A stretch of DNA of 10,648 bases, taken from Candidatus Iainarchaeum sp. Lineage in GTDB: Archaea; Iainarchaeota; Iainarchaeia; Iainarchaeales; Iainarchaeaceae. Where the stretch lies: NCBI GenBank assembly GCA_043812975.1, contig JBDRLP010000030.1:1-10648 (forward strand), written 5' to 3'. Below, in pieces: positions 1,684 to 10,403 of this stretch (positions are counted from its first letter, which is position 1; every line of letters starts with the position of its first letter). The notes under the pieces were generated by a model. The model did no database searches and was not told the DNA's origin. It saw nothing but the letters and a program-made list of their open reading frames with translations. A program made the position numbers and the translations under genes.

Positions 1684-4622
1684 TAAAAAAAGTTTTTGTG
1701 CTGATTTTTATTCTTTTGATGCTGGCAAATTTTTCTTTTGCTGAAAGGCCTAATCAGGAAGTTTTGAAAAAAATAGATGTTTATAACAGGCCTGGACTTG
1801 CAAAGGACGACTTTATTTTTGTTTTTGAAATTCAGGCTTATATAGATGAGACTGAAACAGGCAATATTTATTTCCTTGATCTTGATGAGGAAAGAGATGA
1901 AGGAATATGGGCAAATGTAAAAGAAATTCTTGAGGATAATTCCGTTGAATCTCCTAGTGATTTGAGAGATCTTTCTTTTGAACAGCATAAAATTAATTTT
2001 GGAAAGTTGGATTTTGAAATTTTAGATAGGGAAAGTGACGGAGATCTTGATGTTCTTTATGAGTTTGACGGAGACAACATTGATTGCTTTAGCCTTTGGG
2101 GTTACGCTGCTTTTAACTTGTATACAACAAAATTCTCTTATTGTGATGATAAGGAAATTCCAGATAATAAAGGTCTGGCAATGGCAAAGCACACCAAAAT
2201 GACAAGTTACACCGGTACTGAAACATTTACTGTTGTTTATGGTACTAAATCAAAAGTAGAAAAGCTTGAAGGAAAAGATTTATCTGAGATTACAACTATT
2301 CTTACCGGGCCTCAACTTGGTTTAAAAAAACTTGAAAAAAAACCAGATCCAGCTCCAGCTCCAGGATTGATAGAAAGGGGTACTGGAGCTGCTTCCGATG
2401 CCGGAGCTTTTGTTGTTGGTGCTGCTGGTGATATAAAAGATTCTGTAGTAAACCGTTATTATGATTGGAAATATGGTCCTACTAATTTTTCATGGGACAA
2501 TCCTGATGAGAAAGATACTATTCTTCTTTCATGGGAACCAATTAGTAATGACGCGGTAAAAGGTTATGTGGTAAAGAGAGAGGATATTTCGAAAGCCCCT
2601 ACAGAAATTAAGTATTATGGTGTTGAGTCAACCAAAAATCTTTACATCTTAAATTCCGGGGAATTTGAGCAGGATGTAATTTATGACTTTACTCTTTTTT
2701 CCTCTATTGTTAATCTTCCAGGAACAGGAGAACTTCCTGAAGCAGCAATTCGCAGTTTAGGTGAAGATCTTAAACAAGGAAAGCCCCAAGTAAGAGTTAA
2801 GGTTACTTCTGAGGAAACAGATGTTGTTCTTGAAAATTTGAAAATTAGGGTGATTGTTGAAGGAAACACCTATATTCCGGATGCTGCTACTAGAGAAATA
2901 TATTTGCCGTATAAAGAGAATATTGCTGTCAGCTTTGAAAATCCAATGGATGGAGTTCCTTATACTATTTCTAAAGAAGATTGCAGGTCAGCTTCAGTTG
3001 GGCCTTCAAGTGCAAAAGTTCTTTTTGTTAACGAATTAACTTCAGATGGCCAGACTTTTTATGCATGTCAGGATAAAGCAAACTTAGTAAACCCTTCTAA
3101 TGCAGGGCTTCAAATAGTTGGTGGAGGTGCAATTCCTGATGGAAAGATTTATTCTGCAACAGATCCTTCTCCTGAGTTTGCATCAGTTGCTTTAAAATTC
3201 AAGCCGCCGATAAGCCACAAACAGCCTTTGTTTGTGAATGAACAACTTCTTAAAGTTGAATTGGAAAACATTAATCCATTGAAAAATATTTTCTTTTCCT
3301 CAGGAAAAACCTGTGAAGTAATCAGACAGGAACTGGATGAAGCATCTATAAAAGCCATTGATGCGAAAAGAAGAGAAACTAGTGCTGATAGAAAAACAAG
3401 GTGGGAGAAGGCGCAGGAAACACTTTCAGCAGGGGTCTCTGTAGTTGGCAATTTCCTTGATTCTGGTTTGGATTGGTTCCATAGAGAAGCGGTTTTATTG
3501 GGTGAAGAAGCTGAAACCGCTACTGTTGGAGAAATACTAGGTTCGAGAGCTGGAAGATCAGGAGCTTTTGTTGTTATAAGTGGAGAGGCTTTTTGGGATA
3601 AGCTGAAGCAAGGGTATGATGCTGCTTTGGATAGTTATGAAGAGGCAAAAGTTGCTGCAAAGGAAAGTTATGCTAACTCGAAAGTTGAGATTCCTGACGA
3701 TGCAATTCCTCTTCCTTTTGATATTTCGATTGAAAAAGTTTATACTCTTGCTCCAAAAGTTTTCAAAGATAGAACAATTTTTTACTTTGGAAAAGTTGAC
3801 GGAACTCCAGTGAAAGCATTAGTTGAGGCTGATACAATTCCTACGATTCATGTTTGTCAGTTTGATGCAGGCTCAATAATTACTATTGAACAGCTTGCAA
3901 TTTTAATAAATCAATCAACATTAGGTTCGGTTGAGACCGATTCTGGCTCTTCTGAACCTGGCTCTCCGAAACTTGATAGCCTCAAAATAAAAAAGGACGG
4001 TGCTTGGGAAGAATATTTAACCAGTCCGCCAAAAGACAGGTGGCTTAACACTTTCGATTACAATCCTAACGATGAAATTTCAGTGCAATTCAAATCAGGG
4101 GATGATTCAAGTGAGATTTATCAGTGGACTCTTGAATTATGGAAACAAAAACCCAGTTCAGTTGAGGAATGTGATGGTGATAAAGAATGTGTTAGGGTTC
4201 AGGTTGAATCTGGAGGCCTAATTGATTCTGCCGGCAAAAAAATAAAGCTCACTAATGCTGATGGTACTCAAATAACAGGGGATGCTCGTAGTACTCTTTT
4301 GGCAACTGCTTCTCCGCACAGCCAGCCAATTCAAAGTGCATTTGTTTTCAAGGGAGACGAACCTGCATGGTATAAGAACAAAAATACTAATCTTAAAGAA
4401 GCAATTGGGGATGCAAAAACTGTTTGGTTAAGGGTTGAGACCTGTCGTTTGCCTGGAGGAGAGGCTGAGTGTAAAAATAATTGGTTGGACTCAACAGCTT
4501 ATGAAATTACTATAGGAGAACCTGAGGAAGAACCAGAACCAGTAATTACAGGATGTAAAACAGTTGCTGAGTGTAAAGCAATATTAGATTTAAAGTTGAT
4601 TAAACAGGTGTTTGGAAAATAA
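1680..4622 (+). CDS. B1: large secreted multidomain surface protein (980 aa) with an FN3-like domain and a C-terminal domain shared with B2
   Basis: Signal peptide MIKKVFVLIFILLMLANFSFA and SD GAGGAG at 1666-1671. FN3-like pattern PTNFSW...TILLSWEP...VKGYVVKR...IYDFTLFS (~2478-2703). aa ~763-980 align by eye with B2 aa ~362-568. The protein ends in GCKTVAECKAILDLKLIKQVFGK. Confidence 0.92.
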   Translation: MIKKVFVLIFILLMLANFSFAERPNQEVLKKIDVYNRPGLAKDDFIFVFEIQAYIDETETGNIYFLDLDEERDEGIWANVKEILEDNSVESPSDLRDLSFEQHKINFGKLDFEILDRESDGDLDVLYEFDGDNIDCFSLWGYAAFNLYTTKFSYCDDKEIPDNKGLAMAKHTKMTSYTGTETFTVVYGTKSKVEKLEGKDLSEITTILTGPQLGLKKLEKKPDPAPAPGLIERGTGAASDAGAFVVGAAGDIKDSVVNRYYDWKYGPTNFSWDNPDEKDTILLSWEPISNDAVKGYVVKREDISKAPTEIKYYGVESTKNLYILNSGEFEQDVIYDFTLFSSIVNLPGTGELPEAAIRSLGEDLKQGKPQVRVKVTSEETDVVLENLKIRVIVEGNTYIPDAATREIYLPYKENIAVSFENPMDGVPYTISKEDCRSASVGPSSAKVLFVNELTSDGQTFYACQDKANLVNPSNAGLQIVGGGAIPDGKIYSATDPSPEFASVALKFKPPISHKQPLFVNEQLLKVELENINPLKNIFFSSGKTCEVIRQELDEASIKAIDAKRRETSADRKTRWEKAQETLSAGVSVVGNFLDSGLDWFHREAVLLGEEAETATVGEILGSRAGRSGAFVVISGEAFWDKLKQGYDAALDSYEEAKVAAKESYANSKVEIPDDAIPLPFDISIEKVYTLAPKVFKDRTIFYFGKVDGTPVKALVEADTIPTIHVCQFDAGSIITIEQLAILINQSTLGSVETDSGSSEPGSPKLDSLKIKKDGAWEEYLTSPPKDRWLNTFDYNPNDEISVQFKSGDDSSEIYQWTLELWKQKPSSVEECDGDKECVRVQVESGGLIDSAGKKIKLTNADGTQITGDARSTLLATASPHSQPIQSAFVFKGDEPAWYKNKNTNLKEAIGDAKTVWLRVETCRLPGGEAECKNNWLDSTAYEITIGEPEEEPEPVITGCKTVAECKAILDLKLIKQVFGK
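3966..4619 (+). repeat. Shared domain copy 1 (protein-level repeat, B1 C-terminus)
   Basis: Colinear motif matches with copy 2: PKLDSLK/PRLNYLK, KDRW/KDRY, DYNPND/DANPNE, QWTLELWK/QYTVELWK, RVQVESG/RIQVASG, VWLRVETC/VWLRIETC, WLDSTAY/WLDSEAY, GCKTVAECKAILDL/GCKTIAECKAILDL. Confidence 0.9.
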
Positions 4623-7397: not shown

Positions 7398-10300
7398 ATG
7401 GATAAAAAAAATCTTACACTATTCTTGGTTTTGCTTCTTGCCGTTCCTGCCTATGCTTTCTTGGATATGACTGCAATCACAAGTATTTTGCAGGCTGTTC
7501 AGGCACAGATTACAAGTATTGATTCTGAGGAAGTAAATTCTCTGACCCTTGTTTTTCCTGAAAGTATAAGTGATTCTGATTTACAGGAGATAAATTCTTC
7601 AATTTCTTTTAAGAACAGGGTTCTTGACGAAACTGCAAACAAGGTTGTATTGAATGATGTTTCTCCAAAACCTAATGGCACAATAAACGGCAAGAAAATT
7701 GTTTTCAATCTTAAAATTGGAAGTTACCAAGTTTCTTCTGTAAATTTCAAGCAGCCTTTGGATGTATCTATGACATCTGATCAAACGGTCACGATTAATT
7801 CTGATAATCTTGCTGCAGTAATTGTTGAACCAGGGCTGGAACCGCCTGTTCAGATAGACCCTCCTGAGGTTCCCGTATCTGTTGGAAATATGCCGAGGGA
7901 GATTAAGGTTGAGGATTTTACTTCTCTTTCAGATGGTGTTTTGATTTTTGATCCGAATAATCCGATTGAGTTGGTTAGGGATAAGTATTCTTATCTTCCA
8001 GAAAGCGGTTATGTTGTAACTCAAGAAGGAAAAATAGTAGTAGCCCAGTATGTGTTTTATAAAGAATCAGAAGACAAATATTTTTACACTACCAGTTACC
8101 CGTTTTACCGAGAGCCTTTTCTTTCTAATTTTTTTAGCTGGTCAGACTTAGTTGCTGATGCTCGGAGTGCTACTGAAAAAAATGGACGCTGGAAATATTC
8201 TGTTTCTAATGAACTTTCTGATACTGTTGCTAGTTCGCTTGGTTTGCCAACCAAGGAAGATTATTTTGGCAAGTTTGTTCAATTATTAGATGAGGATTAT
8301 ACCTTTGTTTTTTCTATGAAGAGTGGTACAGATGATACTGTTTACATTGACATTGATTATGTTGCTCTTGTCCCCAGTGATTTAATTGAAGATGATTCAA
8401 GTACAGAGGTTGAGCCTGTTCAGCCTGATGTACCTGAAGAAGATCCTGCTGCGGAAACAGAAGAGTTAAACGTCTGCAAGCCAAGATTAAATTATTTAAA
8501 ATTTGGGCCTAAGGCAACTCCGAGGGATTCTTTAGAAGAAAAGGATCGTTACATTGTTCTTGATGCGAACCCGAACGAGTTTGTTGATTTGGAGTTTAAA
8601 GTTACGAAGTTTGAAGTAACCGGGGTTGCATCTCCTGATATTGAGGAATTTGACTGCCCAATAAAACAATATACTGTAGAGCTCTGGAAGAAGAATCCTG
8701 CTGATGTTGACGATGCGGAAAAAGAAGAAATGAGAATCCAGGTTGCCTCGGGTCAGTCTGGAAGTGCAGGGGAAGAAGATCCTATTAAACAGCCAAAGCA
8801 AAAAGATTTTCCTTTTATTTCAAGTTTTAAAGTAAAATGGCAGAATTCTTATGAAAAAACATTAGGTGAAGCAGTAAAAGACCTTGAATATGTTTGGCTT
8901 AGGATTGAAACCTGTGATGAAAGTGATCCTGCTGCTGATGATGAGTGTGATGGAAAATGGTTGGATTCAGAAGCTTATAAGATTAAAATTGTTGCTCCTA
9001 AGCCAAAGCCTAAACCTGAAGTAGTTGAAGTTAAGGGCTGCAAAACAATAGCAGAGTGCAAAGCAATTCTTGATTTGAGAATGGTTGAACAGGTTTTTGG
9101 GGATATTCCTAGTGGAATTGTTACTGGTACATTAAGTGCTTCATGTAACTTGCCTAGAGAATTGACTCAGGCAGATGTTCAAAATGCTTTTGGTCCTACC
9201 TGTGCGCAATACTTTGGTTTTGTTCAGGACTCTGTTGAACAAACAGGCTTGATAAACAAAGGCTTTGATTCGCTTATGCTTTTCTCGTTGATGCAGGCGG
9301 AAAGTAATTGTAAAATAAATGCCGAAGGGGCATCTGGAAATCCTTATTGTGGTCTTATGCAATTACATTGCACAAATAATTCCAATCTTGAGTGTCCTAA
9401 TGCTTTGAGTCGTTTTGGTAATAATATAGATCGCTTTAATGCCCAGCAAAACATTGCTTGTGGAACTGAACATTTATTGGGGAAATATAGTTATGTTGAG
9501 CCTAAAATATCTGGAAACGCTCTCGAACAAATAATTCCACTCAGCTTTTTATCATATAATCGTGGTCAAGTAGCAGGAGTAAACGCTGCAAGATATTATA
9601 ATAGCGGAGACCCCTTGCATGATGCTATGGTTCAAGGTTGTGTTGATTTACCTAATGAATGGGCGAAAAGACCTGGATTTTGTGGCCAAGGACCTGTGTG
9701 GACACTAGGACAATCCGATACAACTGCTCTTGGTGCTAGATATGCGGAGAAAATAATGTATAATTACATAGCTGCCTGTGAAAAGATTGGTGTAATTTAT
9801 GGTGAGAATTCAAATGAAGTTTCTAGCACAGTTTCTTCTTTGAATTTAGCATGGCCAACCCAAAGCAAAGATGTTATTACTTGCGTTGCAAATTCCAATA
9901 ATCATTCCGGAATTGATATTGGCGGTTCAAAGGTCTTTGATGGAAGTCAACAATCATCAAGAACTGAAGGAGCAATAGGAATGCCAATATTTGCAATTGC
10001 AGATGGAACTGTTGTTGATATTAAAGATGGTTGTCCTCCTAGTGGATTTGGAACCAATTGTGGTCCAAGACCTTCAGCGAGTTATGGAAATACTGCTGTG
10101 ATTAAGTTTGATGGTTTGGAAGGGTATTTTGTTTACGCTCACTTGAAGAATAATATTTCAAAATCAAAAAACCAAAAAGTTATAAGTGGAGAACAGATAG
10201 CTGAAATGGGTACAAGTGGTTATGCAGGAGAACCACATTTGCATATTACTTGGGTAAAAGACGAATCATTTTATTCTAATAATACTTTCAATTACAATTT

Positions 10301-10403
10301 TTCATTAGCTAACACAGAAAATCCGCTTTCTCTTTTTGATGCAAGTCAGTACAATTTGATTTCATCAAGAGGTGGCGTCAGCTCAGGAACTTGTACAACC
10401 TAA
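7398..10403 (+). CDS. B2: secreted modular peptidoglycan hydrolase (1001 aa) with an SLT/GH23 lytic transglycosylase and an M23 zinc metallopeptidase
   Basis: Signal peptide MDKKNLTLFLVLLLAVPAYA, with SD GGTGA overlapping the previous stop. SLT motifs: QAES (Glu635, 9300), GLMQ (9351), NIACGTEHL, SYNRG (9552), RYAEKI (9738). M23 motifs: WP, HSGID (9903), PIFAIADGTV, YGN, YAHL (10134), MGTSG...PHLH (10236), NPL. Confidence 0.93.
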   Translation: MDKKNLTLFLVLLLAVPAYAFLDMTAITSILQAVQAQITSIDSEEVNSLTLVFPESISDSDLQEINSSISFKNRVLDETANKVVLNDVSPKPNGTINGKKIVFNLKIGSYQVSSVNFKQPLDVSMTSDQTVTINSDNLAAVIVEPGLEPPVQIDPPEVPVSVGNMPREIKVEDFTSLSDGVLIFDPNNPIELVRDKYSYLPESGYVVTQEGKIVVAQYVFYKESEDKYFYTTSYPFYREPFLSNFFSWSDLVADARSATEKNGRWKYSVSNELSDTVASSLGLPTKEDYFGKFVQLLDEDYTFVFSMKSGTDDTVYIDIDYVALVPSDLIEDDSSTEVEPVQPDVPEEDPAAETEELNVCKPRLNYLKFGPKATPRDSLEEKDRYIVLDANPNEFVDLEFKVTKFEVTGVASPDIEEFDCPIKQYTVELWKKNPADVDDAEKEEMRIQVASGQSGSAGEEDPIKQPKQKDFPFISSFKVKWQNSYEKTLGEAVKDLEYVWLRIETCDESDPAADDECDGKWLDSEAYKIKIVAPKPKPKPEVVEVKGCKTIAECKAILDLRMVEQVFGDIPSGIVTGTLSASCNLPRELTQADVQNAFGPTCAQYFGFVQDSVEQTGLINKGFDSLMLFSLMQAESNCKINAEGASGNPYCGLMQLHCTNNSNLECPNALSRFGNNIDRFNAQQNIACGTEHLLGKYSYVEPKISGNALEQIIPLSFLSYNRGQVAGVNAARYYNSGDPLHDAMVQGCVDLPNEWAKRPGFCGQGPVWTLGQSDTTALGARYAEKIMYNYIAACEKIGVIYGENSNEVSSTVSSLNLAWPTQSKDVITCVANSNNHSGIDIGGSKVFDGSQQSSRTEGAIGMPIFAIADGTVVDIKDGCPPSGFGTNCGPRPSASYGNTAVIKFDGLEGYFVYAHLKNNISKSKNQKVISGEQIAEMGTSGYAGEPHLHITWVKDESFYSNNTFNYNFSLANTENPLSLFDASQYNLISSRGGVSSGTCTT
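8481..9101 (+). repeat. Shared domain copy 2 (protein-level repeat, B2 middle)
   Basis: Same colinear motifs as 3966-4619, located immediately before the SLT domain. Confidence 0.9.

Follow-up and report, generated by a model that had tools for sequence, protein, structure and literature searches.

A predicted exported peptidoglycan hydrolase with tandem SLT and M23 domains, encoded by the last gene of a six-gene operon in Candidatus Iainarchaeum

The locus

The DNA considered here is a single contig, C30, from a metagenome-assembled genome (MAG) of Candidatus Iainarchaeum sp., a small-genome archaeon of the DPANN type. The contig is 10,648 bp long, belongs to a producer genome (G000) of 68 contigs, and was analysed whole; it is referred to as the window. 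It carries six genes, all on the + strand. The last of them is an open reading frame (7398-10403) for P0001, a protein of 1001 amino acids (aa) whose C-terminal part consists of an SLT domain followed by an M23 domain. We put the probability at about 0.7 that P0001 is a Sec-exported bifunctional enzyme that degrades peptidoglycan (PG) and acts on a bacterial target. An earlier, sequence-only reading had marked positions 9132-10403, which amount to P0001 residues 579-1001 plus the stop codon (423 residues), as a tandem of the two enzymes with intact catalytic residues. The description of the tandem is borne out, as Pfam, motifs, and fold all agree on it.

The five genes upstream of P0001 encode proteins that match no Pfam family. 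They are a basic protein, P0005 (264-968, +); an acidic single-pass membrane protein, P0006 (1069-1683, +); a 980-aa secreted paralogue of P0001, P0002 (1680-4622, +), which ends at a sequence motif that P0001 also contains and that is called the junction motif below; a second acidic single-pass membrane protein, P0004 (4635-5285, +); and a 706-aa secreted protein, P0003 (5273-7393, +). From P0006 onward, neighboring genes are separated or overlap by 4-13 nt. A Shine-Dalgarno-like word, GGGTGA, lies 5 nt 5' of the P0001 start and overlaps the stop codon of P0003. The P0001 gene would be the last, translationally coupled member of an operon whose other products include exported and membrane proteins.

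The SLT domain

The first catalytic domain of P0001 covers residues 591-801 (9168-9800, +) and was delimited by Pfam, fold match, and alignment. Lytic transglycosylases of family 1 (SLT/GH23) carry their catalytic Glu in an E-S motif, which is followed by GLMQ and [AS]YNxG motifs. P0001 has all three: ES at residues 635-636, GLMQ at 652-655, and SYNRG at 719-723, each at the place given in the sequence-only reading. The predicted catalytic residue is E635 of the E-S motif (9300-9302, +). The ES dipeptide occurs six times in P0001 and alone has little weight; GLMQ and SYNRG each occur once. The Pfam SLT family (PF01464) matches residues 622-730 with 22.9 bits (E 6.6e-5), narrowly above the cut-off of 21.3 bits. 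Further evidence comes from an alignment of seven sequences of this SLT subfamily, in which E-S, G.MQ, YNRG, and six Cys are invariant.

The fold of the domain was assessed in an AlphaFold2 model of residues 575-1001, which was built from an 88-sequence alignment, had a mean predicted local distance difference test score (pLDDT) of 79.4, and was compared with known structures by VIA-align. Model residues 17-227 matched MltF (5aa2_B) with a Z of 14.7 and a root-mean-square deviation (rmsd) of 3.7 Å over 170 residues. The same part matched MltC (4cfo_A; Z 14.1) and Slt70 (1sly; Z 13.7); the three alignments span 155-171 residues. Z scores of about 13 can be unspecific for helical folds, and therefore the SLT motifs carry the weight of the assignment. 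An SLT/GH23 domain of this kind would cleave the bond between N-acetylmuramic acid and N-acetylglucosamine (MurNAc-GlcNAc), in the manner of a lytic transglycosylase or of a muramidase.

The SLT subfamily of P0001 also occurs outside the SLT-M23 combination. Elsewhere, its fusion partners are a GH73 glucosaminidase (in P0049) and an M15 peptidase (in P0074). A second, small SLT protein of 277 aa is encoded on contig C26 of the producer genome (L005:1057-1890). This protein is membrane-anchored and has the motifs ES, GQLMP, and SYNAGRG. Of six genomes of the genus, five have a small SLT gene of this kind (~250-320 aa), and G000 is one of the five.

The M23 domain

The second catalytic domain covers residues 803-984 (9804-10349, +) and was assigned from Pfam, fold match, and motifs. 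The hallmarks described for the M23 family are H(x)nD, HxH, and an extra His about 30 residues before HxH (PMC9662197). The sequence-only reading had named H836/D840 and H947/H949 as the first two of these, and they are present as it described. HSGID (residues 836-840) is the only H...D motif in P0001, and HLH (947-949) is the only H.H motif. The extra His, absent from that reading, is H915 in a YAHL context. It lies 32 residues before H947 and is nearly invariant in the 88-sequence alignment. The five residues are encoded at 9903-9905 (H836), 9915-9917 (D840), 10140-10142 (H915), 10236-10238 (H947), and 10242-10244 (H949), all on the + strand. Conservation of H915, H947, and H949 is 90% or more across the 88 sequences, and the H, G, and D of HSGID are invariant among six related archaeal M23 domains.

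Pfam Peptidase_M23 (PF01551; MEROPS M23B) matches residues 858-955 with 45.3 bits (E 1e-11), well over its cut-off of 28.7; NCBIfam gave weak M23-type matches only. H836 and D840 fall outside the Pfam envelope, which starts at residue 858, because of an 18-residue insertion after HxxxD. This insertion is common only to an orthologue in G003 and a decayed relic in G005, both of which are MAGs of the producer genus. Model residues 229-410 matched lysostaphin (4qpb_B; Z 16.5, rmsd 2.1 Å over 127 residues) and LytM (2b13_A; Z 16.0, rmsd 2.1 Å over 127 residues), and DipM fell within the same Z range of 16.0-16.7. At the sequence level, the domain matched StM23 (9gy1) in the PDB with an E of 4e-6, and an alignment profile searched against solved sequences found 44 M23 sequences at E ≤ 1e-5. 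A zinc endopeptidase of this type would cut the peptide stems or cross-links of PG.

The domain is followed by a C-terminal tail that contains Cys999 and then the stop codon (10350-10403, +). C829 (9882-9884), just before HxxxD, and C999 (10392-10394), three residues from the C-terminus of P0001, are each retained in every one of the six archaeal M23 domains that were aligned, the decayed relic among them. This conservation suggests that the two residues probably form a disulfide clamp that is specific to the subfamily.

Export and the N-terminal part of P0001

P0001 begins with a signal-type N-terminus (residues 1-20, MDKKNLTLFLVLLLAVPAYA; 7398-7457, +), identified by a hydrophobicity scan, with cleavage after AYA judged by eye. 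On the Kyte-Doolittle scan, residues 4-31 are the sole hydrophobic segment of the protein, with neither a second hydrophobic segment nor a C-terminal anchor. Together with the 20 Cys residues of P0001, the hydrophobic N-terminus supports the prediction that the protein is exported.

An acidic N-terminal region with Pro-rich linkers comes next (residues 21-361; 7458-8480, +); it was delimited by composition and matches no Pfam family. Over residues 23-575, there are 102 Asp and Glu against 55 Lys and Arg (net -47), as well as 38 Pro, and the Pro-rich linkers lie at about residues 146-160, 335-350, and 533-541. These values fit the ~570 residues of acidic domains separated by Pro linkers that had been seen before the enzymes by eye. 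Residues 24-118 align with the N-terminus of a giant hydrolase of G003 at 26% identity, and a comparison of residues 23-575 with the protein atlas gave no usable match. A model of residues 23-580, built from an 8-sequence alignment, had a mean pLDDT of 48.9, with values below 50 over residues 111-356. This stretch may be a linker, a set of globular domains, or something else.

How would the two enzymes be presented? The sequence-only reading had them projected away from the cell on a stalk. This proposal is conjectural, as the protein has no anchor beyond the signal segment and its N-terminal part is poorly modelled; P0001 may remain on the cell, associate with the other operon products, or leave the cell. 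The same reading had noted that no LysM or PG-binding motif was evident, and indeed neither LysM nor any other wall-binding family was found in P0001 at E ≤ 0.1 in Pfam or NCBIfam. A Sec-type signal and a missing anchor would also suit a protein that is set free. In this alternative, P0001 would diffuse freely as a bacteriolysin of the kind represented by lysostaphin, zoocin A, and haloarchaeal Woldo; the killing of bacteria by archaeal M23 enzymes that are secreted to the supernatant has been described (PMC12352652). However, free bacteriocins of the lysostaphin kind usually carry a wall-targeting domain of the sort not detected in P0001. Furthermore, P0001 has 570 non-catalytic residues and a strictly conserved operon linkage to the genes of five proteins that are exported or lie in the membrane and that include one with the same module of ~200 aa, which points to an assembly. 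We therefore regard free release as possible, though doubtful. In the reading we prefer, a conserved beta-rich module and a junction helix bracketed by Cys residues would link both enzymes with the fast-evolving acidic N-terminal part.

A conserved module followed by apparently exchangeable hydrolases

The module that precedes the enzymes covers residues 362-568 (8481-9101, +) and consists of a beta-rich domain, a Pro linker, and a junction helix. It aligns with the C-terminus of P0002 (residues 763-979) at 35% identity (E 3e-28). The ~200-aa module is also present in G003, G005, G004, and the metagenomic protein P0007. An alignment of seven modules shows a beta-rich domain (..YQWT.ELWKK.P..VWLRVETC..WLDS.AY..), a Pro-rich linker, and GCKT[IV]AECKAILDL..QVF. 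The model of the module, with a pLDDT of about 60-88, consists mostly of strands, and its final helix is the junction motif. In P0001, this motif is GCKTIAECKAILDLRMVEQVFG (residues 547-568; 9036-9101, +), as defined in alignment A2 (n=7), in which its C, T, E, C, K, A, D, and F are invariant. At the C-terminal end of P0002 (window 4554-4619), the motif reads GCKTVAECKAILDLKLIKQVFGK; P0002 resembles a P0001 paralogue that lacks the enzymes.

What follows the junction differs among close relatives. Three of the seven module proteins stop 0-2 residues after it, namely P0002 (980 aa) and its orthologues in G003 (968 aa) and G005 (1002 aa). The other four go on: P0001 with SLT and M23, P0007 with SLT alone, and a 1766-aa frame of G003 and a 646-aa protein of G005 with Amidase_3. 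The G003 giant (1752-1766 aa) contains M23, GH3, the module, and Amidase_3 in that order. Directly after the stop codon of the 646-aa Amidase_3 gene, G005 has an M23 relic of ~80 aa (L018:3564-3806, minus strand). The relic is 59% identical to P0001 residues 819-875 and then passes straight to the tail (71% identity), an in-frame deletion having removed the part with H915, H947, and H949. In other words, the hydrolase end of the operon appears to have been rebuilt, moved, or lost within one genus, much like a cassette that can be exchanged. Between the paralogues, the window contains no DNA repeat of more than 30 nt, so that the exchanges would not be recent here.

This arrangement recalls polymorphic toxin loci such as CdiA-CT and Rhs, which have a conserved delivery part, a junction motif, swappable C-terminal effectors, and decayed copies nearby. 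As in a cassette locus, unrelated C-terminal domains follow a conserved junction in close relatives. Unlike in CdiA-CT and Rhs loci, the wall hydrolases act outside the target, an immunity gene is neither expected nor seen, and there is no signal of recent recombination. One tentative model, which we consider more doubtful than not, is that the six-gene operon encodes a surface apparatus. The module and the junction would then serve as a universal adaptor for SLT, M23, GH3, and Amidase_3 cassettes that are recombined, dropped, or left behind as relics, and P0002 would be a structural partner with the same docking module. If this model is true, the enzymes of each species would be tuned to the chemistry of the wall of the bacterium that it uses as host or prey.

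Some smaller observations concern these genes. The source record gives the G003 giant as a 902-aa protein (P0174) that starts after the M23 domain, though the frame is open. An AbiEii toxin and AbiEi antitoxin pair (L016:31-1247, on contig C4 of G003) adjoins the giant M23, GH3, and Amidase_3 gene. The metagenomic protein P0010 is the M23 relic of G005 at 99% identity.

Relatives and distribution

Close relatives of the SLT-M23 pair are few. In an all-against-all HMMER search, the SLT and M23 part of P0001 matched 1068 proteins at E ≤ 1e-3, nearly all of them via M23, and only two, P0007 and P0008, reached E ≤ 1e-30. P0008 is a 413-aa metagenomic protein with the SLT-M23 pair and is 33% identical over its full length. 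A word-indexed search with P0001 residues 575-1001 among proteins of similar length gave a single match, P0007, from 5652 candidates. A search for the module among longer proteins gave three matches, two of which were proteins of G003. Judged by these searches, the module appears to be rare.

Elsewhere in the taxonomic order, SLT and M23 are paired in a 787-aa protein of G029, which resembles P0001 only in M23 (28% identity) and is probably an independent fusion. A 1747-aa frame of G026 may be another case, with a strong M23 and a weak SLT signal; Pfam on the called open reading frame gave M23 only. The M23 domains of these two more distant proteins (L040:3287-3730 in G029; L020:6325-6792, minus strand, in G026) read PHLDI and PHLDV at the HxH site, with Asp in place of the second His, which is a zinc ligand.

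The nearest named relative of the SLT domain is P0014, from a Pacearchaeota MAG (E 2.4e-9). The nearest relatives of the M23 domain outside the group have E values of 1e-9 to 1e-11. Among ten of these, four clusters bear a name: one member is assigned to Aenigmatarchaeota, two have names of functions, and one has an uninformative code. No donor was identified among the ten. A search of the genome contigs with an SLT pattern made from four sequences gave 22 matches, none of which was confirmed. Among the 215 species genomes of the class, M23 was found in 23 (21 over the cut-off) and SLT in 62 (60 over the cut-off). Genes for PG cleavage are common in the class; the SLT count leaves out the weak copy in P0001.

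The likely target and the points against it

Which wall would such an enzyme act on? Neither a penicillin-binding protein (PBP) transpeptidase nor FtsW/RodA nor Amidase_3 was found in the 94.5%-complete producer genome. With no PBP transpeptidase or FtsW/RodA gene found, the archaeon probably builds no PG of its own, and P0001 would most likely act on a foreign wall, that of a bacterium with which the archaeon makes contact, be it a host, prey, or competitor. Of the earlier proposal of an attack on a foreign wall, the foreign target thus makes sense, and the projection on a stalk is the conjectural part.

Several findings weigh against the reading of P0001 as a PG-degrading enzyme of an archaeon. 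They concern the SLT assignment, the activity of the two domains, the substrate, and the origin of the contig, and each is taken up here with the alternative to which it belongs. The SLT match lies only 1.6 bits above the Pfam cut-off, and a whole-genome SLT search missed the P0001 copy. PrgK is an example of a protein in which the domain of the SLT fold is a muramidase and the LytM domain an inert regulator (PMC11323569).

The last point leads to an alternative in which the domains of P0001 are mainly an adhesin. They would bind bacterial PG for docking and cut it little or not at all, like the degenerate LytM factors EnvC or the LytM domain of PrgK, which is inert and regulatory (PMC11323569). 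Attachment has been proposed as one role of the large transglycosylase proteins of DPANN archaea (PMC8204110). Since the Pfam scan found no separate wall-binding domain, the catalytic domains themselves would have to do the binding. However, all five M23 active-site residues and the E-S, GLMQ, and YNxG motifs of the SLT domain are intact, and inert LytM factors are reported to have typically lost active-site residues (PMC9662197). These observations argue against the adhesin, which we consider unlikely.

The substrate is touched by a single Mur_ligase_M gene in G000, a family that was also matched in the controls Methanocaldococcus jannaschii and Haloferax volcanii. This gene would be in keeping with an enzyme that acts on an archaeal envelope polymer, that of the producer or that of an archaeal host, for example pseudomurein or some other layer of glycan and peptide; and cultivated DPANN archaea are described as episymbionts of other archaea (PMC8204110). 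Nevertheless, the characterised members of both families act on bacterial murein, and searches of G000 turned up neither a transpeptidase nor a SEDS gene. Moreover, homologues of PG hydrolases in archaea are described as nearly absent from the classes that make pseudomurein (PMC12352652). An archaeal polymer as the substrate is very improbable.

The remaining points concern the contig itself. C30 holds the operon alone, and no paralogue of the window proteins was found elsewhere in G000. Its GC content is 37.3% as compared with about 35% genome-wide, and its tetranucleotide profile correlates at 0.965 with that of the remaining genome, which is the sixth lowest value among the 50 contigs of at least 5 kb (median 0.988). 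It might therefore be a mis-binned piece of a bacterium, phage, or mobile element, and P0001 an ordinary lysin, all the more so as the two-domain matches in Foldseek were the phage proteins phi29 gp13 (3csq_D) and the cyanophage A4 pre-ejectosome protein (9k2v_A).

With no paralogue and a somewhat atypical composition, it is synteny in two further MAGs of the genus that carries the archaeal assignment. The gene order P0005-P0006-P0002-P0004-P0003 is kept on contigs G003:C8 and G005:C3, with homologues that are 28-48% identical, beside archaeal-type housekeeping genes, namely a GMP-synthase-type gene and an AAA gene of the proteasome-activating-nucleotidase type. In the PHROGs database, all families that matched P0001 were of the M23 type, and the five upstream proteins had no match. 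Only one of 50,697 phage records matched (21% query cover, 40% identity), and the nearest named SLT relative, P0014, is from Pacearchaeota. A non-archaeal origin is thus the least probable of the alternatives, a slim chance at best, and the operon is taken to be chromosomal in this archaeal genus. The producer genome itself (1.24 Mb, 2.2% contamination) contains archaeal small-subunit (SSU; 945.7 bits) and large-subunit (LSU; 624.2 bits) rRNA according to Rfam. The archaeal SSU model matched at two places. One is on contig C53 (6244-7061), where 818 nt span model positions 1-1478, and the other is on contig C12 (1-994), where a 5'-truncated SSU is followed by a tRNA and the LSU rRNA.

Comparison with known systems

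A role against bacterial walls has already been proposed in print for the large lytic-transglycosylase proteins of Woesearchaeota and Pacearchaeota; what is new here is an adaptor or junction with apparently exchangeable hydrolases. Castelle et al. (2021) described these proteins as extracellular and proposed that they bind or degrade bacterial walls (PMC8204110). P0001 shares with that family a small-genome DPANN producer, a large exported chain with a C-terminal SLT domain, long unannotated regions, and the same proposed role. It differs, in a comparison made by features and not with the fam00969 sequences, in its length (1001 aa, whereas the family reaches 3000 aa), in the addition of an intact M23 domain, and in belonging to a class outside the two named lineages (PMC8204110). 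GH23 genes in Woesearchaeota have also been given a "vampiristic" reading by Vigneron et al. (2022) (PMC9723730), and a DPANN M23B peptidase has been reported (PMC8561730).

Strock et al. (2025) described a patchy distribution and domain shuffling of such hydrolases in archaea and demonstrated killing by two haloarchaeal enzymes (PMC12352652). Like their Woldo from Halogranum salarium, which has M23 and two PG_binding_1 domains, P0001 has an archaeal M23 domain and is predicted to be secreted. Their catalogue demands a Pfam wall-binding domain, and both catalytic domain families of P0001 are on their list (PMC12352652). No wall-binding family is detected in P0001 at E ≤ 0.1, which puts it outside that catalogue. 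P0001 has two catalytic domains and, at the point where a known targeting domain would be expected, a module specific to its lineage. In the literature searched, there was no description of an SLT-M23 tandem in one archaeal protein or of the junction module; the supplementary architectures of Strock et al. might include some.

Two further kinds of systems combine the same domain types. In phi29 gp13 (3CSQ) and cyanophage A4 (9K2V), as in P0001, a lysozyme-like domain is followed by M23 in one chain; the phage chains breach a wall from outside, as P0001 would. Foldseek aligned both domains to 3csq_D over 382 columns (E 1.9e-5) and to 9k2v_A over 455 columns (E 1.7e-6). In contrast to the phage proteins, identity is 14%, the template modelling (TM) score is 0.20, and the window has no virion genes. 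The metal-site spacing also differs, as gp13 is given as H(x)7D (PMC9662197) and P0001 has H(x)3D. PrgK, of the pCF10 type IV secretion system of Enterococcus faecalis, contains LytM, SLT, and CHAP domains and likewise joins an M23-type and an SLT-type domain in one extracellular protein from an operon for a multi-protein system that crosses the envelope (PMC11323569). In PrgK, however, the domain order is reversed, and the LytM domain is described as degenerate and metal-free (PMC11323569), whereas all the ligands are kept in P0001. PrgK opens the wall of its own producer (PMC11323569); the archaeon apparently has no such wall.

P0001, with its active-site residues intact, would be a further sign that archaea with reduced genomes target the walls of bacteria, and one that apparently lies beyond Woesearchaeota and Pacearchaeota. 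Screens that demand a known wall-binding domain miss such enzymes. A junction that carries different hydrolases in sister species is a natural experiment on the retuning of enzymes, and it could offer a handle to predict whether the partner of an uncultured DPANN archaeon is bacterial or archaeal. The disulfide-rich SLT and M23 subfamilies are candidate sources of antibacterial enzymes.

Other observations on the window

The window matched no Rfam family and contained no tRNA. A scan of it for bacterial promoters and terminators showed no enrichment as compared with shuffled sequences (26 vs 27.8 and 9 vs 8.0, respectively). For P0003, the best match in the protein atlas reached a TM of at most 0.27, with an atlas model of mean pLDDT 0.47.

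Three metatranscriptome contigs from groundwater, 167-234 nt long, are identical to the window at 379-611, 4288-4454, and 8513-8740. In a comparison with sequencing runs, two runs shared 0.15 and 0.07 of the sampled words with the window; five short contigs were identical, and the rest of the window was mostly uncovered. The metatranscriptome contigs, which could reflect carry-over of DNA, are a weak hint that the P0001 operon is expressed.

The two acidic membrane proteins showed no match to a pilin family in Pfam at E ≤ 0.1. Their N-termini consist of a basic residue, x-x-G, and a long hydrophobic run, a pattern that recalls archaeal pilin signals, and one might speculate that they are pilin-like proteins. 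P0004 and P0006 are weakly paralogous (E 5e-5), and each of their genes directly precedes that of a large secreted protein.

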